Below the pieces are notes generated by a model. The model was not told where the DNA came from, made no database searches, and was given only the letters and a program-made list of their open reading frames with translations. 48,988 nt of DNA from Escherichia phage JLBYU09. Of the stretch, positions 1-48,988 are shown piece after piece. Made by a program: the position numbers and the translations under genes. Positions within the stretch are counted from its first letter, which is position 1; every line of letters starts with the position of its first letter. The stretch lies in the sequence record OK272487.1; one strand, written 5' to 3'.

Positions 1-1
1 G

Positions 2-712
2 CTATTTTGCGTTTGCTTCGAAGACTGCGCGAGCAAAACCGCGCGGAGTGAGGGAGCGGATCATCTTTGTGCGAGATGATTTTCCGCCAGTTTTGGCCCA
101 GCCTGGATTATCTTTGTCATTCTCTTTCGGCAGGATTAAAGCGCGCTGAGGAATAACAAATCCGTTTCCAGTCCAAAGGCATGTTTTCTTAAAGTAGCGA
201 TCCCGCGCCGGAATAATATCAGGAAAGTCGGGATGTTTATCATCTTCCGGAAGATAGCCAGCATAATCGCACGGATGGAACGTATAATCAGGCTTGCGCC
301 ATAACGTTGACAGCTTGCCTACAGGATTCTCTATCATGTACGGAACGCCGAAATAATCAGCAATTTGCGCCGCTATTTTGCAAGTGTCGGCGGCCTCATC
401 CTGGAAAGAGGGATTCTCAAGGCGTTTTTTGGACCAATGGCGAGATCCGCTATTTGCAAGGTCAGTGCACGGCGGAAATGCCATAATGAAATCAGGCTTG
501 CCCCAATTTTCAAGTTTTGCGGTATATTTGAATAGCTCATCAATCCACACATTAACGTAAAAAATATTATCATGGATTATGCGCACTGATTGGTAATCTC
601 CATGATCTGCATCATCGTAATTAAAGCAAATGCATTTATATCCAGCATCAGCCCAATCTTTAACGGCTTTACCAGATCCATCAAACAAAGAGAATATTAA
701 ACCTTTATACAT
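2..712 (-). CDS. DNA cytosine-5 methyltransferase
   Basis: 236 aa; AdoMet motif I FSLFDGSG, catalytic motif IV AFPPC, motif VI ENP; RBS GAGGTG before the ATG at 712; stop TAG at 2-4 lies inside the conserved box that wraps the window ends. Confidence 0.75.
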   Translation of the reverse strand: MYKGLIFSLFDGSGKAVKDWADAGYKCICFNYDDADHGDYQSVRIIHDNIFYVNVWIDELFKYTAKLENWGKPDFIMAFPPCTDLANSGSRHWSKKRLENPSFQDEAADTCKIAAQIADYFGVPYMIENPVGKLSTLWRKPDYTFHPCDYAGYLPEDDKHPDFPDIIPARDRYFKKTCLWTGNGFVIPQRALILPKENDKDNPGWAKTGGKSSRTKMIRSLTPRGFARAVFEANAK

Positions 713-721
713 TTCATCACC

Positions 722-946
722 TCAAAACGGAAAGCATCTAGGGCAGTTCGGATCAAAATTGCAACCACAATCATTAACAATCATGGTTGGATCTGCAAAT
801 GCAGCGCCGCATTCATGGTCCATATCCATTTCACCCAACGCATCATCAAGCGTCCTGATTTTATATGCGACCTCAAGCGCGGCCTCTTTATTCAGTCCGG
901 CATCTTCTGCTTTTTGCAGTCGCTCAAAAAAACCGTCTTGACTCAT
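722..946 (-). CDS. hypothetical protein, Cys-rich C-terminus
   Basis: 74 aa ORF; C-terminal CGCNFDPNCPRC; ATGA start/stop overlap with the upstream small ORF. Confidence 0.5.
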   Translation of the reverse strand: MSQDGFFERLQKAEDAGLNKEAALEVAYKIRTLDDALGEMDMDHECGAAFADPTMIVNDCGCNFDPNCPRCFPF

Positions 947-1056
947 TTAATAAACTCCTTAACAACAGCAAGAATAATCACAAGCCCAGCAGTAAAAACA
1001 AGCAAACCGACAAGGCCAATCATAACACCAAATAAAATATCAAGCGCCTTAATCAT
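943..1056 (-). CDS. small hydrophobic membrane peptide (37 aa)
   Basis: Hand-translated MIKALDILFGVMIGLVGLLVFTAGLVIILAVVKEFIK; below the track size cut-off; ATGA overlap with the next gene. Confidence 0.35.
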   Translation of the reverse strand: MIKALDILFGVMIGLVGLLVFTAGLVIILAVVKEFIK

Positions 1057-1103
1057 TTATTCACCATTGATAAAATGGGAGGCGGCAACCTCCCATTGAT
1101 TAA

Positions 1104-1331
1104 TCATACAGCCTTCCAGCTTTCAATAAACATGCTGTTTTCTTCCAGAAGTTTAATCAATTCTTCGCGCGTATATTTGCGGATTTTACTACCTGGATGT
1201 GAGCCAACAACAAACACACCTTTACCACTTGTGATGGTTAACTGGTTAATTCCGCAAGATTTATCCATTTTCACGGCGACGCGGTGATGTGCATCAACAG
1301 TGTGCATGATGTTAGTGACTTTAGCTTTCAT
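1104..1331 (-). CDS. hypothetical protein
   Basis: Track ORF 1104..1364; internal ATG at 1331 is preceded by GAGGAT RBS, so the start is moved there. Confidence 0.5.
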   Translation of the reverse strand: MKAKVTNIMHTVDAHHRVAVKMDKSCGINQLTITSGKGVFVVGSHPGSKIRKYTREELIKLLEENSMFIESWKAV

Positions 1332-1374
1332 TATGCGATCCTCATTGTACTTAGTGTAGGACATTATATTTACT

Positions 1375-1772: not shown

Positions 1773-1805
1773 TTTCAAATCCTCGCATTCGTTGTCGATG
1801 TGTGT

Positions 1806-1850
1806 AATATATCGGATTGCGAGGATTGAGTTTTAACAAAAAGTGCTATT
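1806..1850 (-). promoter_or_regulatory. conserved-box promoter-like element (box, 19-nt spacer, TATATT)
   Basis: Minus-strand AATAGCACTTTTTGTTAAAA at 1850-1831, -10-like TATATT at 1811-1806; stop TAA of gene 1850..2116 abuts the box. Confidence 0.5.
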
Positions 1851-2644: not shown

Positions 2645-2682
2645 TTGCTTTCTCCTGATGGGTATCTCGTTTCGATGTGTGC

Positions 2683-2727
2683 ATTATGCCGAATCCAGTC
2701 AGGCACGTTTTAACAAAAAGTGCTATT
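2683..2727 (-). promoter_or_regulatory. conserved-box promoter-like element (box, 19-nt spacer, CATAAT)
   Basis: Minus-strand AATAGCACTTTTTGTTAAAA at 2727-2708; CATAAT at 2688-2683. Confidence 0.5.
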
Positions 2728-3316
2728 TGCTTACTGGTCATTATTCCATCTATTCCATTAATCAGGAATAACAGGAATAACTCATTCGCGATCACCTGGA
2801 TTGGGAGACTTTGAGTTTGGTCAATTTTAATCAAGTGATTAACTTTTTGTGTGGAGGGGATAGAGAAACGCTGCCCTCTTGCATCCTTTCCGACAATCCT
2901 GGCGCGCGCATCTGTTATTTCTGTTCCCCATGTTATCTCAAATAAGCCTCCGCACTTTTAGATAACAGAATCGGCGTTCATCAACAAAAAGAACAAAATA
3001 AAANTNANATATNNACNNANNANATCAATAAGTTAGTTATATATGTATTTATATTTGTTATTTACTGTTGAGCTTGTTCTATGGGTATATGGTGGAGTGG
3101 TATTGTTTGTGGTGATATGTATGTGTGATTGTATATTTTTTAATCAATGGTGATATGTGGTGATTTTTGTATGTATATATATAGGTATGGAGCAATCCTC
3201 CGTCAACCAAGTCAACAAGGTCATTTTTAAAAGAAAAACCAATGACTTAACTGAAGCATTTTGTTATCTTTAAACGCGCCACATGCCAAAAATTGTTATT
3301 AAAACACAAAAATACA

Positions 3317-3345
3317 TTGACACGTATGAAAGGCAAGGCAATAAT
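3317..3345 (+). promoter_or_regulatory. sigma70-like promoter (TTGACA, 17 nt, AATAAT)
   Basis: TTGACA at 3317-3322, AATAAT at 3340-3345; at the right end of AT-rich region A, before the first rightward gene. Confidence 0.5.
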
Positions 3346-3381
3346 GCATCCAGTTTAAACGCAACAAAAGGAGTAGACGCC

Positions 3382-3903
3382 ATGAGCGAAGAAAATATTA
3401 GCACCATGTCGCGTAGTGAGTTCTGCGATATGCTTCGCAGCCTGGGCGCGGCAATTGGTAGCGGTGAGCGTAATGATGTATTCATGCCAGCACTTTTTTT
3501 GTGCGCTAACGTGGAGAACGGCGAAGCAATTACGGCATCGTACATGCGCCAAGTGGTCAACCGTGTGCCAGAAGTAAAGCAAAAAGGCGTGATCAGCATT
3601 AAGCGAAAGGTGACTGATGAGGGTGATGGCTTTGTGTTTACGCTCACTGAAGCCAAAAGCAAGCCTCGCGTTCTGACTGGTGAAGAAATCGACGAGATCG
3701 CAGAAAAGCGCGCAGAGAAGGCGGTAAGCAAAATTCTTAATCACCTGGTAAACGTAATGCCAAATATCACAGACCTGGAAGGCGACAAACTTGCTGGGGC
3801 GTGTGAGGCTATCGGGCGCTACCAGGATATGATTCGTAAACTCGCTGGAGGAAAAGAGGATGAATANNNNATNNNNNNNNNTNTTNAAACTCGAAAACGA
3901 TAA
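3382..3903 (+). CDS. hypothetical protein (C-terminus crosses N-run)
   Basis: Track ORF 3283..3903; start moved to ATG 3382 after AAAGGAG RBS; N-run 3867-3893. Confidence 0.5.
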   Translation: MSEENISTMSRSEFCDMLRSLGAAIGSGERNDVFMPALFLCANVENGEAITASYMRQVVNRVPEVKQKGVISIKRKVTDEGDGFVFTLTEAKSKPRVLTGEEIDEIAEKRAEKAVSKILNHLVNVMPNITDLEGDKLAGACEAIGRYQDMIRKLAGGKEDEXXXXXXXXTRKR

Positions 3904-3969: not shown

Positions 3970-4863
3970 ATGTTAAAACTTGCTGACATTAAATTCCCGA
4001 TCACCTTCGAATCTCGCGGCATTGGTCATTACATTTTTACCGATGAAAAAACATGCCATAAGGTTGATATGAATAGCGACAAACTAACCCCATCAACAAT
4101 GGAGATTGAACACTTTATTGATGCACACAATACGCACTACAACGCACTTAAAGACTATGGCTATGCAATGCCAGGCTACACATGTTTGCACTACAAGCCA
4201 TATAAGGGCCAGGTGTTACCAGTGCGCTCACCGGAACGCGCAGAGATTCCGATGGTCAATATGAAAACCTGCGACTACAAAAAGCTGTGGTGCTTAAGTC
4301 TGGACAATATCAAGTATCCGATCACGTTCCACACGACTGGTAAGTCAACGATTCGCTACACATCGCGCGACAATGGCGTTTATAGCGATGGTACGAAATC
4401 AGGGTTGAAAGTTGATTTCTTTGTCAATGGTCACAACAAGTTCAATCCGCACAATGAAAAGGATAAGGTGTACTACGTGGAAGATATTACAAAACACTTG
4501 TTTGGAGAAACACCATTCGGCGGCGGTAAGACGTCAATTCAACAAATCATTGGCGAGGAGATCCACAAGGCAGCCGTTGAAATGAAAGCGCCTGGAGGAT
4601 GGCGTATTGATAAGAGCGCAATTGTCTATCAAGAAATAGTAACGCAGGGCGCAATTGAAGACATGCCACTTGCCGCCACGCTAAAAGGCGTCCAAATTGC
4701 GGATGGCACATGGTTTGAATTAACGGCAAAACCAAAGACTATCGAGATTCATGATGATGTTGTTATTCTTCTGCTTCATTACGGTAGCGCAAAAAACCGT
4801 ACCGTTGCGGGTGAGATTAGCATCAAGCGCGGAACGATGGTTAAGTGGAATGTCAAAGTGTAA
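3970..4863 (+). CDS. hypothetical protein with internal duplication
   Basis: 297 aa; AGGAGA RBS; two related modules (IKFPITFESRG and IKYPITFHTTG); stop TAA abuts the conserved box. Confidence 0.6.
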   Translation: MLKLADIKFPITFESRGIGHYIFTDEKTCHKVDMNSDKLTPSTMEIEHFIDAHNTHYNALKDYGYAMPGYTCLHYKPYKGQVLPVRSPERAEIPMVNMKTCDYKKLWCLSLDNIKYPITFHTTGKSTIRYTSRDNGVYSDGTKSGLKVDFFVNGHNKFNPHNEKDKVYYVEDITKHLFGETPFGGGKTSIQQIIGEEIHKAAVEMKAPGGWRIDKSAIVYQEIVTQGAIEDMPLAATLKGVQIADGTWFELTAKPKTIEIHDDVVILLLHYGSAKNRTVAGEISIKRGTMVKWNVKV

Positions 4864-4906
4864 ATAGCACGAATTGTTAAAACTCAAATGTGGGGCCAGG
4901 TATAAT
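4863..4906 (+). promoter_or_regulatory. conserved-box promoter-like element (box, 18-nt spacer, TATAAT)
   Basis: AATAGCACGAATTGTTAAAA at 4863-4882; TATAAT at 4901-4906 sits in the loop of GGCC...GGCC. Confidence 0.5.
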
Positions 4907-4936
4907 GGCCTCACTTTCAACGAAGGAGATAAAACG

Positions 4937-5925: not shown

Positions 5926-6135
5926 TCTGGTTACTTTTAATCTTTGTCACAAGTTACAATTCCGCCGCTATTGAATCGCAAGAGTTCCACGGCGAATCAA
6001 GATGCCAGGAAGCACGANNACNNGNNNNNCNNNANNTCNACGGNCGAATCAAGATGCCAGGAAGCACGAAAACAAGTTGTTCTCCACATGTCAGATAGTG
6101 GGAAAGATGTAACAGCGCTATGCGTTCGTAAATAG
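5922..6135 (+). CDS. small membrane protein (MIWLL family), interrupted by N-run and tandem duplicate
   Basis: ATG 5922 overlaps the upstream stop, GGAGGA RBS; N-terminus MIWLLLIFVTSYNS; frame ambiguous across Ns 6018-6043. Confidence 0.3.
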
Positions 6136-6175
6136 CACTTTTTGCAAAAACACATTATCGGGCTTGCGGTATAGT
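6131..6175 (+). promoter_or_regulatory. conserved-box promoter-like element (box variant TTTTTGCAAAAA, 19-nt spacer, TATAGT)
   Basis: AATAGCACTTTTTGCAAAAA at 6131-6150; TATAGT at 6170-6175 in the loop of GGGCTT...AAGCCC. Confidence 0.5.
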
Positions 6176-6246
6176 AAGCCCATCGACAACAAGCGAGGAT
6201 TAAATCATGGTTAATAAAGTTGAGTTTTTCAAAGCGGTAGACAAGA

Positions 6247-6653: not shown

Positions 6654-6847
6654 TTCTTACTATAGCGCATTCACGCAGTGCGCTATGTTGAGATAACAAC
6701 ATGAGATCATGAAGATGCGAAACTTCGAAAAAATCGTATCCAAAAAGAAGCGATACAGCTACCACGAGCACCAAGAGATGAATCAACGCTATCGCAATAA
6801 GCGCCAGCGCAAAGGTAAACATTCCGGTAAACATGGAGAAAATCAAT

Positions 6848-7438
6848 ATGAAACGCGACATTATCATTCTTAACGGACCGCCAGGAGTTGGCAAAGATAC
6901 GCTTGCGGCATACTTAACGGGTCATCGTTACGCAGCGGTTAAAGCGTCATTTAAACAGCCTATGTTCGATATTGCATTCTCCATGCTTGGCGTTTACCGA
7001 TATGACGAGTTCATTGATCTGTATAACGACCGTGAGCAGAAAGAAAAGCCTCAAGCAATCTTGCAAGGTAAGTCTCCGCGACAATTCATGATCTGGATTA
7101 GCGAAGAAGTCATGAAGCCAGCTTTTGGCGAGCAATATTTTGGGAATCGCATGGTTGAGCAAGTACACGAGATGTACAGAGATTTAGCTGTTGTAATTAG
7201 TGATGGCGGATTCCCTGAAGAAATCAAGCCGCTCGTTAAGGCAGGCCATGAAGTTCACATTTGCCGACTGCATCGCGAAGGATTCACGTTTGATGGCGAT
7301 TCACGAAACTATATTGACCTGAGCGGATACCATCACCGAGTCAAGCATTACGACTTCACAATGATTGATGGCGAGCCAGAAAAGACTGTTGACGAGATCA
7401 TCAAAGCGGTGCAGTGGAAACACACAAAGATTGAATAG
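6848..7438 (+). CDS. P-loop nucleotide kinase (dNMP-kinase-like)
   Basis: Walker A LNGPPGVGKDT with GKDT and a GKSP motif, recalled as resembling T4 gp1 dNMP kinase; start moved to ATG 6848 after GGAG RBS; stop TAG inside the conserved box. Confidence 0.55.
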   Translation: MKRDIIILNGPPGVGKDTLAAYLTGHRYAAVKASFKQPMFDIAFSMLGVYRYDEFIDLYNDREQKEKPQAILQGKSPRQFMIWISEEVMKPAFGEQYFGNRMVEQVHEMYRDLAVVISDGGFPEEIKPLVKAGHEVHICRLHREGFTFDGDSRNYIDLSGYHHRVKHYDFTMIDGEPEKTVDEIIKAVQWKHTKIE

Positions 7439-7478
7439 CACGAATTGCTAAAAGCGGGGCGCAATGCCTCGCTATAAT
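7434..7478 (+). promoter_or_regulatory. conserved-box promoter-like element (box, 19-nt spacer, TATAAT)
   Basis: AATAGCACGAATTGCTAAAA at 7434-7453; TATAAT at 7473-7478. Confidence 0.5.
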
Positions 7479-7508
7479 GCAAACACCAATCAACGAGAGG
7501 AAATCATC

Positions 7509-8800: not shown

Positions 8801-8845
8801 AATAGCACTTTTTGTTAAAACTTCCGCGAGGGCATTTGTTAAAGT
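8801..8845 (+). promoter_or_regulatory. conserved-box promoter-like element (box, 19-nt spacer, TAAAGT)
   Basis: AATAGCACTTTTTGTTAAAA at 8801-8820; TAAAGT at 8840-8845; stops TAA/TAG abut the box. Confidence 0.45.
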
Positions 8846-8877
8846 GTCCTCATTGAAGCGAAATAGAGGAAAGCGCA

Positions 8878-11446: not shown

Positions 11447-13014
11447 TGCTGATTTGGGAAGACTTAACAGCGGCGCAAAAACGCGCCGTTAAGGAAATGA
11501 GCGAATATTCATTCGAAAAGATGATCCGCATTTGGTTTCAACTTCTCCAGGGGCAAAGGTTTTTAGGAAACTGGCATTTCAGTTACCTATGCAGCGAAGT
11601 TGAAAAAATCATCAAAGGCGAGTCACAGAATGTAATTTTCAACATAACGCCAGGCAGTGGTAAAACAGAGATATTCTCGATCCACATGTCACCTTATGCG
11701 TCATTGAAAAGTAAGAAGGTGAGAAATCTTAATTTGTCGTTTAGTGATGGCCTTGTCCAGCAGAATAGCAACCGCATCAAAGAGATTATTGGTTCTCCAG
11801 AATGGCAGGAGCTATGGCCTGGAAAGTTGGCAAAGGCGAGCGCAAAGGATTTGATTGTAACTGATGGCGGCAAGGTTAAATTACAAGTTAACTCGCGTTC
11901 TATCGGAGGTCAGGTTACTGGTCTGCGTGGTGGCTACATGGACGATGGTTTTACTGGTATGTTGGTTCTTGATGATCCAGACAAGCCGGATGACATGCTT
12001 TCTAAGGTGAAGCGCGAAGCCGGACACATGCGCCTAAAGAACACGGTGCGATCGCGTCGAATGAAGGACACCACGCCAATTGTGATGGTTCAGCAACGTC
12101 TACACGTCAATGATTCAACATGGTTCATGACAAACGGCGGCATGGGCGGCATCAAGTTTAAGGTGGTTAGTATTCCGGCGCTCGTTACTAAGGAATATCG
12201 CGAAACGCTTCCTGATTGGTTAAAGCCTGAGTTTGATCGCGATGTTTTGTCCAGTAAGCCAGTGATGATTGATGGCGTTGCTCATTATTCATTCTGGCCT
12301 GCTAAGGAAAGCGCGGATGAATTGCTTGCGCTTCGCAATGCCGATCCGTACACGTTCGCTAGTCAGTATCAGCAACAGCCTGTTGCGCTTGGCGGTAACG
12401 TGTTTAAAACAGAGTGGTTTCAGTATTACGGAAGCAGCGAGAAATGCACGCTACCAAAACCGGATCGCTTTGAATATACATTTATCACGGTTGATACCGC
12501 GCAGAAAACAGGGGAGCTTAACGACTATTCCGTGATCTGTTATTGGGGGATGTATAAAGATCGTGTCTACTTCATTGATGGCGTTCGCGGGAAATGGGAA
12601 GCACCGGACCTTGAGACGAATTTTGTTGCATTCGTTAATCAGTGCTGGAAGCGCAATAAAGAATGCGGAACGTTGCGAAGGATTCATGTTGAAGATAAAT
12701 CGTCTGGCACTGGATTGATTCAGAGTGCGGCGAAAAAAATCATGATCAAGATCAATCCCGTTCAGCGCGATAAAGACAAGGTTACTCGTGCAATGGACGC
12801 AGCACCAGTAATGCGCGCCGGACGCGTGGCACTTCCAGAATCTCATTCTATGCTGGCTGAGATACTCGCTGAAGTTGCGGCGTTCACATTCGATGATTCG
12901 CATCCTCATGATGATATTGTTGATAACATCATTGATGCGGTTAACATTGAAATGAACATGGCAGATGATCCGGTTGGAAGAATGAAAAAATTGGCAGGTT
13001 TGCGGAACAAATAG
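11446..13014 (+). CDS. terL: terminase large subunit
   Basis: 522 aa; P-loop ITPGSGKTE near the N-terminus; size and position typical of TerL. Confidence 0.8.
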   Translation: MLIWEDLTAAQKRAVKEMSEYSFEKMIRIWFQLLQGQRFLGNWHFSYLCSEVEKIIKGESQNVIFNITPGSGKTEIFSIHMSPYASLKSKKVRNLNLSFSDGLVQQNSNRIKEIIGSPEWQELWPGKLAKASAKDLIVTDGGKVKLQVNSRSIGGQVTGLRGGYMDDGFTGMLVLDDPDKPDDMLSKVKREAGHMRLKNTVRSRRMKDTTPIVMVQQRLHVNDSTWFMTNGGMGGIKFKVVSIPALVTKEYRETLPDWLKPEFDRDVLSSKPVMIDGVAHYSFWPAKESADELLALRNADPYTFASQYQQQPVALGGNVFKTEWFQYYGSSEKCTLPKPDRFEYTFITVDTAQKTGELNDYSVICYWGMYKDRVYFIDGVRGKWEAPDLETNFVAFVNQCWKRNKECGTLRRIHVEDKSSGTGLIQSAAKKIMIKINPVQRDKDKVTRAMDAAPVMRAGRVALPESHSMLAEILAEVAAFTFDDSHPHDDIVDNIIDAVNIEMNMADDPVGRMKKLAGLRNK

Positions 13015-13044
13015 CACGAATCGACAAACCAATATATAATCAAA

Positions 13045-13070
13045 GGCTGGTAAATCCAGCCTTTTTTATT
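13045..13070 (+). terminator. rho-independent terminator
   Basis: Hairpin GGCTGG-taaat-CCAGCC followed by TTTTTTATT, after a partial conserved box (AATAGCACGAA). Confidence 0.55.
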
Positions 13071-14363: not shown

Positions 14364-15127
14364 TGAAAGTGAATGGCGTCGTTAAACAATGGCGCTTTCC
14401 TGAAGCAAGCGAGCGGCAATTTAGCCGCTCAATTCAGGAGGCAATTAGAGATCTTGTGGTTCTCATGCGCAAGCGTACAAAAGCGATGAAGTTTGACGCA
14501 ACAGATAATGAGATCAACAGCGCAGAAGATGAAATTAACAACTTGGCAACTGACCTTATAGCTGGCATTGTTTCCACTCTTCCTGCAATAGCGTTGACCA
14601 TCTATAAATTCAATGCGAAGCAGTTCATAAATGTTGCCAAGTCAACTGGCGGAAAGGATAACACGGCGGTAATTGTTTTGATCGCGGTTGGCGCTAACGC
14701 TAACGAGGAGTGGTATCAGACGCTTTACGGTCAATGGCACGGCCTTACAGAATCATCGCTAAGAAAGTTATTCACAAATATTGTGTCTGACTGGTCAACA
14801 AACATTCGCAATGCAAACTTTCGCGGAAGCAATGATAAACAGGTTAATGATCTTGCAGAAAAGAGATTTGCTGTTTATAGCTCCTGGGGTAAAACGAGAT
14901 CAGAAAACATTATCGGCGCGTGGAATAGTCGCCTGATGCGCCAGCGCCTTTATGATGCTAAGGTGACTCATTATTTCTGGCATGGAATGTTAGATGATAG
15001 AGAGCGCTTGCAGCATGTGTTATGGGAAGGTAAAAGAATAGCGCTTGATGCAATTCATGATTTCCCTGGTGAGCCGTGGGGTTGCCGTTGCTGGGCGATT
15101 CCAGATTGGAATAGTAAAGGAGAATAA
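14363..15127 (+). CDS. head morphogenesis / minor capsid protein (SPP1 gp7 or Mu F-like)
   Basis: Position after portal; C-terminal GEPWGCRCW motif. Confidence 0.55.
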   Translation: MKVNGVVKQWRFPEASERQFSRSIQEAIRDLVVLMRKRTKAMKFDATDNEINSAEDEINNLATDLIAGIVSTLPAIALTIYKFNAKQFINVAKSTGGKDNTAVIVLIAVGANANEEWYQTLYGQWHGLTESSLRKLFTNIVSDWSTNIRNANFRGSNDKQVNDLAEKRFAVYSSWGKTRSENIIGAWNSRLMRQRLYDAKVTHYFWHGMLDDRERLQHVLWEGKRIALDAIHDFPGEPWGCRCWAIPDWNSKGE

Positions 15128-17248: not shown

Positions 17249-17331
17249 CACAAAATTATGTTGCACGTTTAACAAAAAATGCTATCATTGTGGCGTTACA
17301 TACTAACAGCCTTTATATATGGAGGAAGAAA

Positions 17332-20988: not shown

Positions 20989-21058
20989 TTACTGTACAAT
21001 CATGCTACACGATTCATAATCAATTCTTTTAACAAAAAGTGCTATCAAGGAGAAAGAA

Positions 21059-26920: not shown

Positions 26921-26963
26921 CCGTATAATTCAACAAATCAAATAGCACAAAAGGTGAAAAAGC

Positions 26964-31790: not shown

Positions 31791-31820
31791 TTTGTGTCTC
31801 CTTAGTTGTTATTGGTTGCA

Positions 31821-31864
31821 ACTATACACGATCTTGCGGTGGGCGTTTAGCAAAAAGTGCTATT
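31821..31864 (-). promoter_or_regulatory. conserved-box promoter-like element (box variant, 19-nt spacer, TATAGT)
   Basis: Minus-strand AATAGCACTTTTTGCTAAA at 31864-31846; TATAGT at 31826-31821; upstream of the Cor-like gene. Confidence 0.5.
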
Positions 31865-32289: not shown

Positions 32290-33351
32290 ATGAATAAGTT
32301 TATGGCGTACACCAGCGAAGAAATGAGTAACGAGCTTTATCACGATCCAGAAGCGTGGACGGCTGATTATGTTAGCGGTTCAAGCCTGGCAGAGATTTAC
32401 AGCACATGCCCGGCAGCGTGGAAGTTCAAGCCGCGTGATGACAAGAGCAAGGCGCTAGTTTTCGGTACGCAGTCGCATACCAACTTTGAAAGCAAGGAGC
32501 TTTTCGAAAAAACCTATCGCCGTGCGCCAGCACCAGAAGAATTTAAGGATCTGATAACCAGCCAAACGGCGCTTGCTGCAAAGCTGAAATCATTTGGACT
32601 GAAAGGTACAACCGGAAAGACTTATCCCGAACTTATAAAAATGATGGTTGACTGCGGAGAAGACCTTAACGTCATGTGGTTAATCGACATGATCGCAGAA
32701 AGTCAGGCCAGGGCCGATGGGGTTCAGTTAATCGAGGCTAAAGATTACGATTCTTGCGTGGCAATGCGCCAGGTTCTGGAATCAATACCGGAACATAACG
32801 CATGTATGAATAGCAAGACGGCACAACGTGAATTATCGTTGTTCGGTGAAATTAACGGCGTAAAAGTCAAAGTGCGATGCGATCACGTTGACGTAACAAA
32901 GAACGTCACCGCAACGCTTATTGATGGTTACGATGAAAAAGGTCAGCCAATTTGCCGCGATATTATTTATCCAGAGGCCATTGTGATCACAGACTACAAA
33001 ACCACAATGAGCGCGAATCCGGCTGAGTTTATGCGCCTGGCTTACAATCACGGCTATTATTTGAAAATGGCGTTGCAATGTGATTTATTCAGAAAAGCGT
33101 ATCCAGAAGAAAAGCGACCTATAGTTGTTCGACTGTTAGCGCAAGAGAAGAAAGAGCCTTATTTGCCGTTGGCTTTCCGCATGAACAGCGAGCAATTGAA
33201 GATCGGGCGCATTCAGTACATGAGCGTAATTAACCAGTTTGCCATGTGCCAGCAACATGACGTTTGGCCTTCGTATTCAAACGGCGAGCCGGAGGTTTGC
33301 CTTGATACTCCTGATTGGGTGCGACGCCAGTTTAAGCAATATCTTATTTAA
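32290..33351 (+). CDS. recombination exonuclease (PD-(D/E)xK family, putative)
   Basis: 353 aa; D...D-Y-K signature (CDHVD, ITDYKTT); first gene of an operon with Erf and SSB. Confidence 0.55.
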   Translation: MNKFMAYTSEEMSNELYHDPEAWTADYVSGSSLAEIYSTCPAAWKFKPRDDKSKALVFGTQSHTNFESKELFEKTYRRAPAPEEFKDLITSQTALAAKLKSFGLKGTTGKTYPELIKMMVDCGEDLNVMWLIDMIAESQARADGVQLIEAKDYDSCVAMRQVLESIPEHNACMNSKTAQRELSLFGEINGVKVKVRCDHVDVTKNVTATLIDGYDEKGQPICRDIIYPEAIVITDYKTTMSANPAEFMRLAYNHGYYLKMALQCDLFRKAYPEEKRPIVVRLLAQEKKEPYLPLAFRMNSEQLKIGRIQYMSVINQFAMCQQHDVWPSYSNGEPEVCLDTPDWVRRQFKQYLI

Positions 33352-33432
33352 ACAGCACAAATAGCTAAACAAATGAAAAATGCGGTGTTATAATTCACCG
33401 CATAAGTTAACAACAAGAGTAAGGAAATAAAC

Positions 33433-46073: not shown

Positions 46074-46106
46074 TTTTAAAATCCTCATATTCGCTTCGAT
46101 GAAACA

Positions 46107-46151
46107 AATATACCCGATACGAGATCAGGTGTTTTAACAAAAAGTGCTATT
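46107..46151 (-). promoter_or_regulatory. conserved-box promoter-like element (box, 19-nt spacer, TATATT)
   Basis: Minus-strand AATAGCACTTTTTGTTAAAA at 46151-46132; TATATT at 46112-46107. Confidence 0.5.
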
Positions 46152-46260
46152 CAATACGCTTTACAGTAACCAACAAAACTCCGTCCTCATCACACAAATT
46201 ATGCTCTGATATATCAAACGCTCGCATGTCAGAATGAATGAGCGTTAACATTGCGTGCAT
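46147..46260 (-). CDS. small hypothetical protein
   Basis: Internal start of track ORF 46147..46341, chosen to avoid overlap with the upstream gene; stop TAG inside the conserved box. Confidence 0.35.
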   Translation of the reverse strand: MHAMLTLIHSDMRAFDISEHNLCDEDGVLLVTVKRIE

Positions 46261-46267
46261 GAAGTCG

Positions 46268-46660
46268 TCATGTGAGATTGAACTTACGGCGCAGAACTTC
46301 AATATTTTGTCTATTAGCATTTGACGTAAACAATTCTTCATCGCTCATTTCTCCGATCCGTAAAGCATCTCTTACCCATTCGTTTTGCATACCTTCCAGG
46401 CTGTAAAGTTCAAACGAGAAAGGGCGATTTGCTGATCCTTTCTTACACCAGAACTTTCCACCAACTCCATCAAGATAACCAGCGGTCATCATTCTTGCGC
46501 AAAATTCTTTTGAAACGGCACTTGCAAACATCCTCGGAGTAAATCCTGCGGCCCTTGCGAGCCGCTCACATTCTCTGTGCTGAAAGATAAATTTTGCTAT
46601 ATGTTGACGTGTAAACCATTCGAATGACTCACACCATCGATACAGATCCAGAAGAAACAT
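46268..46660 (-). CDS. hypothetical protein
   Basis: 130 aa; co-directional and tightly packed with the large P-loop gene. Confidence 0.5.
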   Translation of the reverse strand: MFLLDLYRWCESFEWFTRQHIAKFIFQHRECERLARAAGFTPRMFASAVSKEFCARMMTAGYLDGVGGKFWCKKGSANRPFSFELYSLEGMQNEWVRDALRIGEMSDEELFTSNANRQNIEVLRRKFNLT

Positions 46661-46662
46661 AA

Positions 46663-48246
46663 TTACCCCAGCAATGTTGGATTTACAAAAACAACGCCAT
46701 TAATCACACAAATATAATTTCTTTCTTCAAGCATCGGCAGCAGTTGCGTTTCCATACGCTTCATTACGCCAGCCTGGCCAACAAACGGCTTAACTTTTCG
46801 TGCAGCCTCATATATGGCGCGCACATTCAAGATCCCCTTGTTAGCCTTACCGTGTCGAGTGATGATCTCGATTAGTTTACCCATTTCAGCATCATCACCA
46901 GCATAGCCAGAAGCGTTGGCGGCGCTAATGTATGTTTTGCTCAACTCGCTAAACATCAGCAGTGCTTCCTGAACGGTTTCAACCTCAATCTCTTTCGACT
47001 TTTGAGGGTATCCGCCAGGATTAAACCAATTGCGGATAGTGTGCAAAACCGAAGCAATCCTGATCACCTGCTTATCCATTTTGCCAAGCGCACCGCGCAG
47101 CATTGTATGCGAATACTTTCCGCCATCGGCAAGGTGCGGTTCCATCTCCTGACGAGCCATGTTAAGAACTCGCATTGCGGATTTGCTGATCTTAAGCTGG
47201 ATGTTCGATTCACTCATGATGTTATGGATCAGCTTGAAATATTGGCTTTTCAGTTCTCCATCAACAGGTTCATAAGTAGAATCACCGTTATCATCAACAA
47301 ACTTTCTACGGCCTAAAAATGATTCCTCACGCACAAGCAAATAACGCTCACTTACACCGATACCGCGCGATCCTGCATCCATGATGGCATTGATTGTTTC
47401 ATCCTGGGCAATTACCGCCATACAGCCAAGAGCTTTAAAACTCATATTGTTGTCAGCGTTTGCGCGAGCTATAGAAACATGACCGTGATCCCATGCTTTT
47501 AATACAAGTTCGCTGTTGGTTTTACGTTCGCTATTGGCATATGTCAGACCTAAAAGGCTGTTAATACTTGTTGCCTCGTCTGAAATCACAGCAAAGTTAC
47601 CCTGGCGATTGTTGATTCTTGCAAGTCCTTCCGGCGTTGTGTCGGACACAGGGAAAACGATGTCACACATCTTTTCCAGTTTTTCTTCCAGATCTTCTTT
47701 CTCCTGGTACAGAGATTCCATATCAGCGCCGGAGCGCTCGCTTTTCATCTCTTTTGCAAGACCTGCCAACTTTGCCTGAATCTTTTTTCTTTCCTTCTTT
47801 CGCTGTTCATTAATTCTTTCCACTTCAGCAACCATAGGAGCAAGTGCCAGGCTGTTAACGGCAGATTTACCAGTTGATGGAGGCTGGCTTGTGACAACGT
47901 AAAGAGCGGTTGGTTGATCCGTTCCGTGATACTCAACCGTGAAGCGTCCAAGCATTGCAGCAGACACGCAGCCGATAAAATGCATATATGCCGATGATTC
48001 AGGGAACTGAACTGATCGAGCAATGTTGCGCGCCAACTTACCAACAACATCAATATCATTGCCAAGAGAAATTACAGGGTAGCGATCGTTTCCGTTATTA
48101 ACATCATTAACCTCACCCCAAAAGCTGGACGATTGACGGTATCCGTTTGCCTGAATGGACACGCGCACAGGAGACAATCCTTGTGCATCAGCTAATTCGA
48201 TAATTTGTTTTGGTGTTAGTTTATTGGTTTCAAACGAAAAATTCAT
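46663..48246 (-). CDS. large P-loop-containing protein (putative replication-associated NTPase)
   Basis: Track ORF 46663..48300; start moved to ATG 48246 (MNFSFETNK) after AAAGGAG RBS; Walker-A-like QPPSTGKSAV; family not identifiable without a search. Confidence 0.45.
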   Translation of the reverse strand: MNFSFETNKLTPKQIIELADAQGLSPVRVSIQANGYRQSSSFWGEVNDVNNGNDRYPVISLGNDIDVVGKLARNIARSVQFPESSAYMHFIGCVSAAMLGRFTVEYHGTDQPTALYVVTSQPPSTGKSAVNSLALAPMVAEVERINEQRKKERKKIQAKLAGLAKEMKSERSGADMESLYQEKEDLEEKLEKMCDIVFPVSDTTPEGLARINNRQGNFAVISDEATSINSLLGLTYANSERKTNSELVLKAWDHGHVSIARANADNNMSFKALGCMAVIAQDETINAIMDAGSRGIGVSERYLLVREESFLGRRKFVDDNGDSTYEPVDGELKSQYFKLIHNIMSESNIQLKISKSAMRVLNMARQEMEPHLADGGKYSHTMLRGALGKMDKQVIRIASVLHTIRNWFNPGGYPQKSKEIEVETVQEALLMFSELSKTYISAANASGYAGDDAEMGKLIEIITRHGKANKGILNVRAIYEAARKVKPFVGQAGVMKRMETQLLPMLEERNYICVINGVVFVNPTLLG

Positions 48247-48273
48247 TGGTGATAACTCCTTTTTGATGCGGCA

Positions 48274-48318
48274 ATAATACCGCACCAATGCTACCCGCAT
48301 TTAACAAAAAATGCTATT
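48274..48318 (-). promoter_or_regulatory. conserved-box promoter-like element (box variant, 19-nt spacer, TATTAT)
   Basis: Minus-strand AATAGCATTTTTTGTTAAAT at 48318-48299; TATTAT at 48279-48274 in the loop of GCGG...CCGC. Confidence 0.5.
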
Positions 48319-48535
48319 TGATCCGCTCTATGCTAACTAAGATTTTTTCTGGTTCCTTTGCACTATGGCAATGCGCGGTTACAGAATCAACAAAATCAAA
48401 GTAAAGTGATTTGTGATATGAGAATCCAATCAGCCACCCAACCATCGTTTTCTTTATTGGCCTGACTATATCGCCAGGCTTAAAGGTTTTTGTTGCCGAA
48501 TAAGTCACCTTATAGCGATATTCAGTCTTGATCAC
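48314..48535 (-). CDS. hypothetical protein
   Basis: 73 aa; overlapping start with the upstream gene. Confidence 0.45.
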   Translation of the reverse strand: MIKTEYRYKVTYSATKTFKPGDIVRPIKKTMVGWLIGFSYHKSLYFDFVDSVTAHCHSAKEPEKILVSIERIK

Positions 48536-48918
48536 TTATACATAGCCTCAAACAAATGACAGCCACCAGCGGAAAATCCTACTTCTTCGCGGTATAGCGT
48601 CCAGCGGTCGCCAGCTTCATCAAAAACATAACCAGCAACAGCACCAAGAGCGCGACCTTGCTCAATCTGGTAACGCTTTCCTTCTTTGAAATGTTTTTTG
48701 CACGGGATCTTGTGATCTACAAAGGTGCATTTAATTGTTTTTGTCTTGATATGACGATAGTCAGACTCAACAGCGTTTTGCCACTTGCTACCCTTTGTAA
48801 TGCTCTTTACCTGGAATTGCTCCAACTCGATCACATCATCGCTACCAGCAATTTTTTCGTATACAACTTTATAACGACCGTTCATCAAAACGTTGGTTTT
48901 ATTGCAGATAACTTTCAT
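48532..48918 (-). CDS. hypothetical protein
   Basis: 128 aa; AAAGGAG RBS; first gene downstream of the box that wraps the window ends. Confidence 0.5.
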   Translation of the reverse strand: MKVICNKTNVLMNGRYKVVYEKIAGSDDVIELEQFQVKSITKGSKWQNAVESDYRHIKTKTIKCTFVDHKIPCKKHFKEGKRYQIEQGRALGAVAGYVFDEAGDRWTLYREEVGFSAGGCHLFEAMYK

Positions 48919-48949
48919 CTTTTATTTCTCCTTTCGTTTCGGTGAAGTG

Positions 48950-48988
48950 ATTATGCCAGGCTTTTACACCTGGCTTTTAACAAAAAGT
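48950..48988 (-). promoter_or_regulatory. conserved-box promoter-like element split across the window ends
   Basis: Minus-strand box AATAGCACTTTTTGTTAAAA spans 6..1 and 48988..48975; spacer is the 6-bp-stem hairpin GCCAGG...CCTGGC; CATAAT at 48955-48950. Confidence 0.5.

Follow-up and report, generated by a model that had tools for sequence, protein, structure and literature searches.

A repeated marbox-like box in candidate promoter cassettes of the T1-like Escherichia phage JLBYU09

The repeat and its cassettes in the genome

The window, meaning the whole 48,988-nt stretch analysed (OK272487.1), is a complete Hanrivervirus (T1-like) genome and carries 17 full copies of a 20-nt box, inventoried as 15 same-sense cassettes and 2 antisense orphans, together with 2 half-boxes. 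The pattern AATAGCACNNNNNGTTAAAA, with ≤2 mismatches, matched 14 times against 0.12 expected from shuffles. A cassette consists, in order, of the box, a spacer of 18-19 nt (20 nt once), a -10 hexamer, a predicted start point (usually a conserved C-A 7 nt past the hexamer), an A-rich leader of 21-32 nt, an RBS and an ATG. The same-sense cassettes are as follows.

48943..48988, minus: main part of the wrap-around cassette; CATAAT 48955..48950, predicted +1 A at 48943
6..1 plus 48988..48975, minus: box of the wrap-around cassette, predicted to drive gene 48532-48918
1..6, minus: first 6 bases of that box (AATAGC), whose TAG is the stop of methylase gene 2-712(-)
1799..1850, minus: box 1850..1831, 19-nt spacer, TATATT 1811..1806, predicted +1 A 1799; without local hairpin, spacer ATCCTCGCA complementary to TGCGAGGAT in the downstream RBS region
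2676..2727, minus: opens the leftward block; box 2727..2708, CATAAT after a 19-nt spacer, predicted +1 A 2676; weak hairpin, -6.3 kcal/mol
4863..4913, plus: GAATT-type box, 18-nt spacer, TATAAT 4901..4906 flanked by hairpin arms (-15.2 kcal/mol), predicted +1 A 4913; the first box base is also the last base of the TAA that closes gene 3970-4863
6131..6182, plus: box AATAGCACTTTTTGCAAAAA, 19-nt spacer, TATAGT, predicted +1 A 6182; hairpin -14.9 kcal/mol
7434..7485, plus: GAATT-type box containing the TAG stop of gene 6833-7438, 19-nt spacer with a hairpin inside it (-13.1 kcal/mol), TATAAT, predicted +1 A 7485
8801..8852, plus: last same-sense cassette ahead of the structural genes; 19-nt spacer, extended -10 TGtTAAAGT, predicted +1 A 8852; hairpin -14.2 kcal/mol
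31814..31864, minus: cassette of cor-like superinfection-exclusion gene 31563-31790(-), which stands alone; TATAGT after an 18-nt spacer; no significant hairpin found
33351..33401, plus: diverged cassette AACAGCACAAATAGCTAAAC; recE stop ending on box base 1, 18-nt spacer, TGtTATAAT (33389..33394), -10 flanked by hairpin arms (-11.4 kcal/mol)
38806..38858, minus: diverged cassette GAAAGCACTAATTGCTAAAA preceding the primase gene (start ATG at 38785); 3' part of the box holds the TAA stop of the regulator gene; 20-nt spacer; TATCAT within the loop of a true terminator (GCCTGGCA...GTCAGGC then TTTTTT)
39327..39377, plus: head of the helicase block, adjoining the divergent regulator gene at its RBS and start; 18-nt spacer, TATTAT 39365..39370; no significant hairpin found
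41845..41896, plus: before the Dam methylase gene; VRR-NUC gene ending at a TAG within the box; CATAAT after a 19-nt spacer, predicted +1 A 41896; hairpin of -12.3 kcal/mol in the spacer
42886..42937, plus: 19-nt spacer, CATAAT, predicted +1 A 42937; spacer hairpin GCCCGAC...GTCGGGC then ATAATTATTT, terminator-like both ways
46100..46151, minus: box containing the TAG stop of gene 46147-46341; TATATT after a 19-nt spacer, predicted +1 A 46100; hairpin of -7.1 kcal/mol in the spacer
48267..48318, minus: before DUF3987 gene 46663-48300; box AATAGCATTTTTTGTTAAAT, 19-nt spacer, TATTAT, predicted +1 A 48267; hairpin -13.3 kcal/mol

The remaining elements are two antisense copies, both in the late operon, the two half-boxes and the regulator's own promoter.

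20995..21046, minus: antisense orphan cassette with full box 21027-21046(-), 19-nt spacer, TAGCAT and predicted +1 A; lies between the major tail protein and tape-measure chaperone genes and aims into bidirectional terminator 20964-20982
17267..17286, minus: antisense orphan box just upstream of the major capsid gene, no -10 found at proper spacing; read on the plus strand, an extended -10, TGcTATCAT, is aimed at the major capsid gene
13010..13029, plus: half-box AATAGCACGAATCGACAAAC, at whose TAG the large terminase gene ends; a terminator comes next, with no correctly spaced -10
26941..26960, plus: half-box AATAGCACAAAAGGTGAAAA, running into the RBS of the 1192-aa tail fibre gene
39366..39393, minus: canonical sigma-70 promoter (TTGAGT, 16-nt spacer, TATAAT) of the Cro-like regulator gene; its -10 overlaps that of rightward cassette 39327..39377(+), whose box falls within the regulator 5' UTR

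Several of these placements recur in relatives: T1 has a counterpart of the orphan cassette at the same site (box at 18850(-), TAAGAT), T1 and TLS share the arrangement upstream of the major capsid gene, the tail-fibre half-box occupies the same site in T1 (25021+) and TLS (24908+, DR8 in the TLS listing), and the regulator promoter/cassette overlap is annotated in T1 and listed for TLS. All 13 copies listed in the initial annotation were present as placed, including the wrap-around copy across the window ends, except that one box end, given as 42906, is in fact 42905; the coordinates listed for minus-strand copies were those of the box 5' end. That list lacked 33351-33370(+) (AACAGCAC..., after recE) and 38839-38858(-) (GAAAGCAC..., before the primase gene), as well as the antisense boxes 17267-17286(-) and 21027-21046(-) and the half-boxes 13010-13029(+) and 26941-26960(+). 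The boxes had been described as always oriented with the local gene block, which holds for 15 of the 17 full copies and fails for the 2 antisense ones.

Promoter features and their conservation

A -10-like hexamer, defined by A in the second and T in the sixth position plus at least 4/6 matches, stood exactly 18 or 19 nt past the box in 14/17 full copies against a background of 4.2% (P = 3e-17), with 1 further copy in the window at 20 nt, and GC content was 53% in the spacers compared with 44% in the window, so that the fixed hexamer and GC-rich spacer first noticed in this genome were both borne out. The same layout was found when T1-like relatives were scanned, being common to T1, TLS and Klebsiella phages, and about 150 non-redundant copies were collected (spacer of 19 nt in 126, 18 nt in 24). 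Among 126 non-redundant cassettes from T1, TLS, Rtp, Klebsiella phages and IMG/VR contigs, the start region was conserved at G(-14) (106/126), C(-1) (88/126) and A(+1) (107/126); together with A(-11) and T(-7) of the hexamer, these positions point to a real sigma-70 start site. They agree with the proposal of promoter cassettes that lack a -35 element and carry the box at about -51 to -32, and from the comparative data we infer that the cassettes are sigma-70 promoters of this kind.

Ahead of isolated or unit-initial genes, such as the isolated cor gene and those heading the helicase block and the leftward block, nothing promoter-like other than the cassette was seen. Canonical -35/-10 promoters showed no enrichment in the window (13 against 22.7 expected, 25 against 31.5 and 33 against 35.3), and the TLS authors found just three. 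The box had already been published in the TLS paper (2024) as a 21-nt direct repeat to which no function was given, and we found no measured start sites, box-protein binding or activation in T1-like phages in the literature searched. The comparative case for a promoter role is one of two additions made here. As first suggested, the upstream gene's stop codon is often embedded in the box: among 92 non-redundant cassettes abutting an upstream ORF of at least 40 codons, it was the TAG of aATAGcac in 67, the others being mostly TAA or TGA overlapping the first A's of the box.

Hairpins between box and start

Cassettes folded more stably than their shuffles (mean MFE -9.2 versus -3.9 kcal/mol, z = -2.6), and 106 of 150 non-redundant cassettes contained a hairpin of ≤-6 kcal/mol. 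Two sharp registers were seen, each across 14-15 different stem sequences, the hairpin's 3' end coinciding either with base 1 of the -10 hexamer or with -1/+1; the top register accounted for 22% of cassettes and shuffles never exceeded 6%. Hairpins were stronger where an upstream ORF abutted the box (mean -11.0, n=92) than otherwise (-5.6, n=40; P = 1e-7), and in the window a hairpin of ≤-7 kcal/mol occurred in 11/12 internal cassettes versus 0/4 unit-initial or orphan copies.

The initial annotation had read each element on the opposite strand as a hairpin followed by TTTTAAC, able to terminate antisense transcription. This was overstated: 42% of the 106 hairpins start 0-2 nt from the box, and antisense termination fits just a minority of them rather than being a general property. 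Hairpins ending at +1 mostly lack a U-tract (1.3 T on average across the 8 nt that follow) and are mostly not classical intrinsic terminators. Lying between the box and the predicted start, a hairpin would therefore be absent from the cassette's own transcript and present in upstream read-through RNA.

The box as a marbox and its candidate binder

The marbox is an asymmetric site that binds one monomer of a MarA/SoxS/Rob-type activator (AraC/XylS family), and at class II mar/sox/rob promoters the activator, at about -41, contacts sigma region 4 and the alpha C-terminal domain. The phage box agrees at all fixed positions with both published marbox consensus sequences, 5'-gcannwwntgnnaaa-3' (PMC12052159; 16 exact matches in the window versus 1.6 expected) and 5'-GCAHWWWWTGYYAAA-3' (PMC6900184; 12 versus 0.10), while AYNGCACNNWNNRYYAAAY with ≤1 mismatch gave 16 matches versus 1.4 expected. 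The N/W positions of the consensus accommodate the variable triplet of the box (TTT, GAA or AAA), and the positions left free in the search pattern agree with consensus W, W and T. Counts of gcannwwntgnnaaa were 18 in JLBYU41, 20 in T1, 19 in TLS and 13 in a 22-kb part of a Klebsiella phage, against 1 in an unrelated 47-kb Erwinia phage. The box is in forward orientation, centred at -41.5 and 18-19 bp before the -10, and class II is defined by a forward marbox overlapping the -35 with its centre at -36 to -55 (PMC12052159, PMC6900184). By sequence, the box is thus a consensus marbox in class II MarA/SoxS/Rob geometry; in the literature searched we found no earlier link between the repeat and the marbox, and this identity is the second addition made here. 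The box is accordingly that of the host and not phage-specific as first described, and the early guess of a box-binding activator sits well with a box that is a class II activator site. UP-element-like contacts, also proposed, were not supported, the invariant core AGCAC being no A/T tract and out of register with the UP consensus.

A phage-encoded protein could instead bind the box: about 45 small early phage proteins of unknown fold remain as possible binders, and the core is partly dyad-symmetric (TAGCA N5 TGCTA, perfect in some 55% of copies), a symmetry usable by a dimeric phage HTH protein. Against this, no AraC/MarA-type protein was found encoded by the phage: tblastn of MarA, SoxS and Rob against four phage genomes returned only E > 0.5, an HMM built from four sequences returned only E > 0.1 against all six-frame ORFs, and Pfam detected no AraC-type HTH in 20 window proteins. 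A 130-aa window protein has a winged helix fold and a 128-aa one is all-beta. Neither HTH protein initially put forward as the factor is supported in that role, that at 38841-39314 being a Cro-like HTH and that at 43473-44588 being annotated as a phosphoesterase/SbcD-like exonuclease in relatives, with a weak sub-threshold N-terminal HTH_28 match. Since the phage lacks a detectable MarA-like protein, a host activator is the best candidate, and the box-binding protein is most likely of host origin.

Cells contain Rob constitutively and MarA and SoxS under stress; Klebsiella also has RamA. The match suggests that the phage ties its early genes to the host stress/antibiotic-resistance regulators MarA/SoxS/Rob. 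In unstressed cells, however, MarA and SoxS are scarce and most Rob is kept inactive, while growth of T1-like phages on laboratory E. coli is very rapid, which makes strict activator dependence doubtful. A preprint on 1,050 genome-wide screens, with 64 T1-like phages included, names none of rob, marA and soxS in its main text. Its topic is receptors, and MarA, SoxS and Rob are redundant with one another.

The overall reading, which we consider reasonably probable, is of a compact intergenic expression cassette read by host sigma-70 RNA polymerase; we know of no polymerase or sigma factor encoded by T1-like phages. The marbox-type box centred at -41.5 would stand in for the -35 element and be bound by a host MarA/SoxS/Rob-type activator, as at class II promoters such as micF. 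The -10 hexamer is near-consensus or extended (G at -14 in most cassettes, a complete TGn extended -10 in many) and would probably provide basal activity without activator. Transcription would begin at the conserved C-A 7 nt after the hexamer and continue into the A-rich leader and RBS. The hairpin probably attenuates, terminates or 3'-stabilises incoming upstream transcripts, by analogy with the PeSLs of T4-type phages, stem-loops whose promoter and terminator activity has been tested; the GC hairpins seen here resemble them and occupy the same two positions. A parallel for the promoter itself is micF, where the RamA site, its centre near -41, has GCAC on its upstream and AAA on its downstream side: the E. 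coli micF sequence reads ACAGCACTGAATGTCAAAAC, 18 nt, TAGAAT, 7 nt and the annotated RNA 5' end, the same layout as in the phage, and the mar operon marbox, reverse-complemented, is ATGCCACGTTTTGCTAAAT, compared with ATAGCACGTTTTGCTAAAA for the phage variants.

Genome layout and census of the box

The window was a complete, circularly permuted T1-like genome of 48,988 bp with a 99.7% match over 8 kb to JLBYU41 (Drexlerviridae, Tempevirinae, Hanrivervirus), and its gene order was the same as that of T1.

Gene layout of the window and insertion points of JLBYU41
Across the window ends, - strand, leftward small early gene block
About 3.3-10.8 kb, + strand, rightward small early gene block, leading into the structural genes
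10.8-31.5 kb, + strand, structural genes
After the structural genes, in order: isolated leftward cor-like gene; recombination block; leftward block headed by the gene for a Cro-like regulator; rightward block starting with the helicase gene
1543/1570, 3866/3884 and 37158/37172, insertion points of JLBYU41 in window coordinates

Of the three JLBYU41 insertions, one of about 550 bp carries small genes, one of 264 bp carries a DUF4884 gene, and one of 1.6 kb lies within a tail fibre gene. The annotations of JLBYU41, T1 and TLS list neither an integrase nor a repressor, and no Rfam family matched the window.

The conserved 20-nt box described in the initial annotation was recovered in 14 matches with at most two mismatches, against 0.12 expected, and the copy spanning the window ends proved genuine. 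Broader patterns added 33351-33370(+) and 38839-38858(-) to the 13 copies originally listed, giving 15 same-sense cassettes, each consisting of the box, a spacer, a -10 hexamer, a predicted start, a leader, a ribosome-binding site (RBS) and an ATG, with 74-76 nt from box start to ATG in typical window copies. Besides these, two antisense orphan boxes lay within the rightward late operon (17267-17286 and 21027-21046, both -), and two half-boxes were found at 13010-13029 and 26941-26960, while the structural region from 8.9 to 31.5 kb contained no same-sense cassette. A -10-like hexamer had been proposed 18-19 nt after each copy; this was the case for 14 of the 17 full boxes (4.2% background, p = 3e-17), with one further hexamer at 20 nt. 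The claim that the elements are always oriented with the local gene block held for 15 of the 17 full boxes and failed for the two antisense orphans. The spacers were GC-rich as described (53% versus 44% for the genome), and the stop codon of the upstream gene indeed sat inside the box, as the TAG of aATAGcac, in 67 of 92 non-redundant cassettes that directly follow an ORF of 40 codons or longer; in the others, the ORF mostly ended with TAA or TGA overlapping the leading A's of the box.

A scan of related genomes revealed the same cassettes in T1 (AY216660), TLS (AY308796), Rtp and a Klebsiella phage, together with many contigs of about 50 kb among the IMG/VR matches listed; these matches were mostly single chance hits and T1-like contigs, and served as an extra source of cassettes. 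Among 150 non-redundant copies, the spacer measured 19 nt in 126 and 18 nt in 24. With the hexamer defined by A-11 and T-7 and start points predicted from it, the 126 copies with a 19-nt spacer displayed G at -14 in 106, T or C at -12 in 124, C at -1 in 88 and A at +1 in 107. A TG extended -10 was present in about 40% of copies and G at -14 in 84%, and many hexamers read TATAAT or TATAGT. The pyrimidine-purine step C-A exactly 7 nt past the A-11/T-7 hexamer, which has a background frequency of 8.6%, resembles a sigma-70 start site, and it is followed by an A-rich leader of 21-32 nt (A T/C C G A A A C G A A ...) and then the RBS. The box was nearly invariant between genera whose proteins share just 50-75% identity. 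One 78-nt cassette recurred at 80-97% identity in 499 phage records with hosts Escherichia, Klebsiella, Shigella, Salmonella, Citrobacter, Enterobacter and Cronobacter, and it was annotated as regulatory in none of the 30 matches listed.

Putative promoter architecture and marbox identity

The best -35 alignment in the cassettes reached 2 of 6 positions, and only one cassette passed a scan for consensus -35/-10 promoters, which showed no enrichment anywhere in the window. Three canonical promoters were nevertheless located at the heads of transcription units, corresponding to the three listed for TLS.

Canonical promoters in the window
3317-3345, + strand, TTGACA, 17-nt spacer, AATAAT; before the first rightward gene, whose true start is ATG at 3383
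32233-32260, + strand, before recE
39393-39366, - strand, before the regulator gene

For all other units, among them the helicase block, the leftward early block and the cor gene that stands on its own, a cassette alone lay in front. T1-like phages encode neither an RNA polymerase nor a sigma factor (PMC11447400). Comparative evidence gives good support to reading the cassettes as putative sigma-70 promoters lacking a -35, and the promoter interpretation in the initial annotation gains from the fixed -10, the start point and the family-wide conservation. Two other assignments were rejected: TTGNTA in the box as a -35 would lie 21-22 bp from the -10, which is too long, and CCCCAT past the hexamer as a sigma-32 -10 appeared only in stems pairing a G-run with a C-run, with no properly spaced sigma-32 -35.

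Because the box is asymmetric and has an invariant core containing G and C, we compared it with the marbox, the host site bound by the monomeric two-HTH activators MarA, SoxS and Rob. The consensus 5'-gcannwwntgnnaaa-3' (PMC12052159) had 16 exact matches in the window versus 1.6 expected, and the consensus 5'-GCAHWWWWTGYYAAA-3' (PMC6900184) had 12 versus 0.10 expected, both published sequences being applied unaltered. The common T-type box, GCA-C-TTTT-TG-TT-AAA, equals GCAHWWWWTGYYAAA letter for letter, the variable triplet of the box coincides with N/W positions of the marbox consensus, and the positions left free in our search pattern (W, W, T) agreed with the marbox in 120-125 of 126 copies. 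A third consensus, the 20-mer AYnGCACnnWnnRYYAAAYn, reportedly from the 1999 work of Martin and colleagues, gave 16 window matches with at most one mismatch versus 1.4 expected. Elsewhere, gcannwwntgnnaaa had 20 exact matches in T1, 19 in TLS, 18 in JLBYU41 and 13 in a 22-kb part of the Klebsiella phage, and one in an unrelated 47-kb Erwinia phage.

The geometry was equally close. In a class II mar/sox/rob promoter, a forward marbox overlaps the -35 with its centre between -36 and -55 (PMC12052159, PMC6900184), and the cryo-EM structure of RamA with RNA polymerase shows the micF site centred at about -41, its GCAC on the upstream side and its AAA on the downstream side. Counted from the predicted start, the phage box lies at -51 to -32 with a 19-nt spacer (centre -41.5) or at -50 to -31 with an 18-nt spacer, and every one of the 15 same-sense cassettes had AAA nearer to the -10 and GCAC farther from it, the orientation seen at micF. 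In the E. coli sequence, which we checked, micF reads ACAGCACTGAATGTCAAAAC, 18 nt, TAGAAT, 7 nt and the annotated RNA 5' end, a layout identical to that of the phage; marbox-like sequences before sodA and fumC stand 18 and 17-19 nt from -10-like hexamers, respectively; and the reverse complement of the mar operon's marbox, ATGCCACGTTTTGCTAAAT, is close to the phage variants ATAGCACGTTTTGCTAAAA. By our own estimate, allowing for many transcription-factor motifs, a joint match of sequence, orientation and spacing would arise by chance with a probability of about 1e-5. Judged by its letters and placement, the box corresponds to the marbox of the host at a class II position, so that calling it phage-specific was not borne out, and we consider it fairly probable that it is a class II marbox with a host activator as the candidate factor.

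Regarding that factor, no homologue of MarA, SoxS or Rob was detected below E = 0.5 by tblastn in the window, T1, TLS or the Klebsiella phage, nor any MarA-type homologue below E = 0.1 among all six-frame ORFs by a small HMM built on four sequences. Pfam assigned an AraC-type HTH to none of 20 window proteins, and PHROGs, a PDB sequence search and two AlphaFold models likewise returned no phage MarA homologue. Two MarA-sized proteins are labelled HTH-like in the T1 record, but AlphaFold models gave their window counterparts other folds, a winged helix for 46268-46660 (pLDDT 87, without an AraC-family fold match) and an all-beta fold for 48532-48918, and the regulator (38841-39314) carries a Cro-type HTH. 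Since the phage encodes no homologue of MarA, SoxS, Rob or RamA, binding by a host protein appears the simplest reading; a phage protein of unclassified fold is a possible binder. Rob is constitutively abundant, MarA and SoxS appear under stress, and RamA is found in Klebsiella. The known hosts of cassette-bearing phages are all Enterobacteriaceae, two doubtful host labels apart. About 20 records named 'Campylobacter phage' (e.g. A16a, A123), as well as 'Vibrio phage Vc1' and 'Pseudomonas phage Motto', carry cassettes and are near-identical to enterobacterial T1-like phages (82-88% identical for Motto), and probably these host labels are wrong or the phages are contaminants. Erwinia phage phiEt88 was discarded as a T1-like host-range comparison, being an unrelated temperate myovirus with the portal protein alone in common.

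A phage protein was also weighed as the binder, whether the regulator, next to whose gene a box lies, the winged-helix protein or some further small early protein. In that case the marbox likeness would be convergence or coincidence, and the protein would either switch the cassettes on as middle promoters, once immediate-early transcription had run from the three canonical promoters, or repress them later in a stoperator-like manner. A canonical sigma-70 promoter of its own serves the regulator gene, and a box in the 5' UTR of that gene shares the -10 region with the rightward cassette, a switch-like layout also kept in T1, TLS and Klebsiella phages; the box core contains a partial dyad, TAGCA N5 TGCTA, centred at -42; promoterless antisense boxes persist beside late-gene start sites; and stoperator-like or enhancer-binding roles were suggested by the TLS authors (PMC11447400). 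About 45% of copies, however, have an imperfect dyad (51 of 126 carry T at -37), and the asymmetric conservation (A-50, C-44, T-40 and the 3' AAAA), together with an orientation to the -10 that is fixed in 15 of 17 boxes, suits a monomer site, not a dimeric Cro-type operator; for these reasons the dimeric operator, once a candidate, is retained just as a rival. A repressor site, moreover, needs no fixed distance of 18-19 nt to the -10, the near-invariance of the box across genera with such divergent proteins also argues against a phage-encoded binder, and so does the agreement of two independent marbox consensus sequences with the box at every fixed position and at class II spacing. We therefore regard a phage-encoded binder as unlikely.

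Substantial transcription without an activator may also be possible from the good -10 elements, which would agree with how rapidly T1 grows on laboratory strains that are not under stress. Taken further, this would make the cassettes activator-independent sigma-70 promoters in which the extended or near-consensus -10 does the work and the T- and A-tracts, both within the box, are contacted by the alpha C-terminal domain, as in the strongly conserved upstream regions of T4 and T5 early promoters. The frequent G at -14, the TG motifs and the many TATAAT or TATAGT hexamers speak for it. The UP element consensus is NNAAAWWTWTTTTNNNAAANNN at -59 to -38; in the cassettes, by contrast, -57 to -53 is unconserved and the conserved core at -50 to -44 reads ATAGCAC, so the suggestion of an UP-element-like box was not supported. 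The invariant parts of the box (ATAGCAC, TTG, TAAA) include a G/C core that does not resemble the A/T-rich consensus of UP elements, the tracts do not line up with the UP positions, and GAA freely substitutes for the T-tract. UP elements are among the options of the TLS authors (PMC11447400), but the position-by-position identity with the marbox would be left unexplained, and we consider this account rather improbable.

Hairpins, possible cassette mobility and individual loci

The segment from box end to +2 had a mean minimum free energy of -9.2 kcal/mol versus -3.9 in shuffles (z = -2.6), with z below -1.5 in 68% of copies, and the 3' end of the stem was sharply bimodal, with one peak on the opening base of the hexamer and the other at -1/+1/+2. 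The dominant register, which places the 5' arm at about -24 to -18 and the 3' arm within the discriminator, showed five consecutive pairs in 22% of cassettes versus at most 6% in any shuffle, and these used 14-15 different stem sequences, which indicates that pairing is conserved, not sequence. The hairpin mean was -11.0 (n = 92) where an upstream ORF ran into the box and -5.6 (n = 40) otherwise (P = 1e-7); within the window, hairpins of at least -7 kcal/mol in strength were present in 11 of 12 internal cassettes versus none of four unit-initial or orphan ones (Fisher one-sided 0.003, by our own arithmetic). This tie to an abutting upstream ORF suggests that the hairpin has to do with transcripts entering from upstream, and RNA started by the cassette itself would begin downstream of it. 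In the sense direction, what comes after the stem differs between the two classes: it is the T-rich hexamer region (mean 3.4 T in 8 nt; at least 4 T in 45%) for hairpins that end at the hexamer and the A-rich leader (mean 1.3 T in 8 nt) for those that end at +1, so most of the latter are not textbook terminators. Two cassettes passed a simple sense-direction terminator scan, and that at 38806-38858 contained a full terminator. The proposed antisense termination would fit only the 42% of hairpins that begin 0-2 nt from the box, with TTTTAAC or TTTTAGC close behind on the antisense strand.

These hairpins, together with the stop codon held in most boxes and the two copies passing the terminator scan, could be taken to mean that the elements are gene-end signals only, that is, bidirectional terminators in a conserved stop-codon context without promoter function. 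Unit-initial cassettes, however, have no upstream gene or hairpin and still keep the box, the hexamer and the start point, the U-tract is missing from most hairpins, and the fixed -10 (A-11, T-7), G-14 and start C-A play no part in termination, which makes this reading barely credible.

It has also to be weighed whether the cassettes are recombination modules, similar to the promoter-early stem-loop (PeSL) cassettes of T4-type phages, that have spread and been homogenized both within and among T1-like genomes, the box being kept by copying, not binding. The identity of the 78-nt cassette across records is far above that of the flanking proteins, cassettes separate small variable ORFs in the genome arms, PeSL provide a precedent, and 4 of 14 homology breakpoints with phage vojen fell inside cassettes versus 7% expected. 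No such enrichment was observed against T1 (1 of 16) or TLS (3 of 23), though, and none of the JLBYU41 insertions or indels was bounded by cassettes in the window. The box and hexamer remain invariant while the spacers differ completely, which points to selection on specific positions, not copying. We judge copying without binding to be very improbable, and mobility as such would be compatible with the class II marbox reading, not an alternative to it.

At 39327-39393, two overlapping promoters stand face to face: the minus-strand sigma-70 promoter of the regulator gene (TTGAGT, 16-nt spacer, TATAAT, 39393..39366) has its -10 on the same bases as that of the helicase cassette (TATTAT, 39365-39370), inside the short palindrome GTGTAttaTACAC, and the marbox of the helicase cassette falls in the regulator 5' UTR, an arrangement conserved in T1 and TLS that looks like a candidate mutually exclusive switch. 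JLBYU41 is annotated with a helicase start (window 39356) that precedes the predicted transcription start at about 39377, and the true start codon is probably the in-frame ATG at 39381 or 39405. In the minus-strand cassette at 38806-38858, which precedes the primase gene, the loop of the full intrinsic terminator (stem plus a run of T6-7; TLS counterpart at 35240(-)) contains the -10; incoming transcripts should stop here, and those initiated by the cassette would begin in the 3' arm and escape. Primase starts at ATG 38785, with an RBS, and the TTG at 38847 of the automated ORF call is not a real start. No local hairpin is present in the cassette at 1799-1850(-); its spacer ATCCTCGCA can pair perfectly with TGCGAGGAT over the downstream RBS, so that read-through RNA could mask this RBS and the cassette's own transcript could not.

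As for the antisense boxes, that at 17267-17286(-) precedes the major capsid gene and reads TGcTATCAT on the + strand, an extended -10 matched at the same site by TGcTATTAT in T1 (15060-15140) and TGcTATATT in TLS; within 17267-17340 it is followed by a terminator-like hairpin, an RBS and an ATG, and the capsid gene most likely starts at ATG 17333 (RBS GGAGGA), not at the GTG at 17290 annotated in JLBYU41. Between the major tail protein and tape-measure chaperone genes, an antisense cassette within 20964-21046 (box, 19-nt spacer, TAGCAT) has a T1 counterpart with its box at 18850(-) and TAAGAT; its predicted short RNA would run into a bidirectional terminator at 20964-20982, and the cassette may be a source of small antisense RNA or be decaying. 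Antisense boxes were rejected as class I (reverse, upstream) marboxes for late genes, an RBS and not a -10 lying at class I distance. The half-boxes, in 13010-13064 and 26941-26963, contain AATAGCAC only: the former supplies the TAG stop of the large terminase gene, with a terminator next, and the latter merges into the RBS of the gene for a 1192-aa tail fibre, at the same site in T1 and TLS (TLS DR8). Between the divergent early blocks, a 650-bp non-coding region (2728-3382) includes an N run at 3004-3024, an A/T-rich stretch with short repeats at about 3030-3190 and the canonical promoter at 3317-3345, followed by an RBS and ATG 3383, and an ORF call from 3283 is probably too long; this region may hold an origin or pac site.

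Significance and comparison with known systems

T1-like phages are classic, abundant and notorious as laboratory contaminants, and their transcription programme is essentially unmapped, recent annotation having given only three recognizable promoters and a repeat without assigned function. The class II marbox reading would give the family 15-20 promoters per genome with predicted start sites and name a concrete, cheaply testable host factor. More tentatively, and with somewhat less than even confidence, we propose that the Drexlerviridae, as a whole family of virulent enterobacterial phages, put nearly all early and middle genes under consensus class II marboxes, that MarA, SoxS and Rob (RamA) drive or tune their expression, that bile salts, salicylate, oxidants or mar-type mutations boost infection, and that 15-20 perfect sites per replicating genome could titrate the activators off host defence genes. 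If these activators do drive the cassettes, phage growth would be coupled to the multidrug-tolerance regulon, with a bearing on phage therapy of mar-type resistant Enterobacteriaceae and on phage behaviour in the bile-rich gut. The cassettes would further be of use as promoter parts that are compact, insulated and activator-responsive, and if the box instead binds a phage protein, this would be a new activator whose specificity is MarA-like.

The box is known as a repeat, since it was already published for TLS: a 21-nt direct repeat, aaATAGCACnnnTTGnTAAAA, occurs there in 21 copies oriented along transcription, about 76 nt before start codons and in AAA, TTT and GAA subgroups (German, Kropinski and Misra, PHAGE 2024, PMC11447400), and it was also noted in T1, Rtp and Rogue1 (PMC11447400). 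In consensus, subtypes, orientation and distance to the ATG, it is the same element as the box in the window. Its role was left open between stoperator-like sites, enhancer-binding sites and UP elements, the repeats were not listed as promoters, and the fixed -10, start point, hairpin classes and marbox identity reported here do not appear in that paper (PMC11447400). A link between the repeat and the marbox was not found in the literature searched, which left out the T1 (2004) and Rtp (2006) genome papers.

The class II MarA/SoxS/Rob(/RamA) promoters of Enterobacteriaceae (micF, fumC, sodA) share with the phage elements an asymmetric 20-bp site, made up of GCAC, a 7-bp A/T-rich linker and AAA, that is forward, overlaps or replaces the -35, is centred at about -41 and stands 18-19 bp from a sigma-70 -10. 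Host marboxes are degenerate, single and chromosomal, whereas the phage has 15-20 near-consensus copies in a virulent 49-kb genome; these would drive most of its non-structural genes as candidate MarA/SoxS/Rob sites, and the phage box also carries the upstream stop codon, with a hairpin in the spacer or around the -10. In the E. coli fumA-fumC intergenic region, the fumC marbox-like sequence ATGGCACGAAAGACCAAACA begins 2 nt past the fumA terminator hairpin and T-run, an order of terminator, marbox and -10 that resembles the phage cassettes.

In packaging, the putative class II marbox promoter, with its hypothesized host factor, is PeSL-like. PeSL cassettes of T4-type myoviruses (Arbiol et al. 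2010, PMC2839356; Comeau et al. 2014, PMC4122927) have shown promoter and terminator activity with reporters, mini-circles also having been tested experimentally (PMC2839356, PMC4122927). Like the T1-like cassettes, they combine a conserved sigma-70-type promoter with a GC stem-loop, mostly between -35 and -10 or over the -10, in which G-runs pair with C-runs. PeSL, however, have a normal -35 and an A/T-rich upstream region, where T1-like cassettes have a marbox and no -35; they also occur in myoviruses. T4 middle promoters use a 9-bp MotA box centred at -30 and a phage activator after AsiA remodels sigma; they resemble the cassettes in joining a sigma-70 -10 to a conserved activator box that replaces the -35, but the cassette box is 20 bp long, is centred at -41.5 and has no phage activator that we found. 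The stoperators of mycobacteriophage L5 are likewise many asymmetric sites placed in short intergenic regions along transcription; they are repressor sites of a temperate phage without a fixed relation to a -10, whereas JLBYU09 is virulent and its sites have full promoter geometry.
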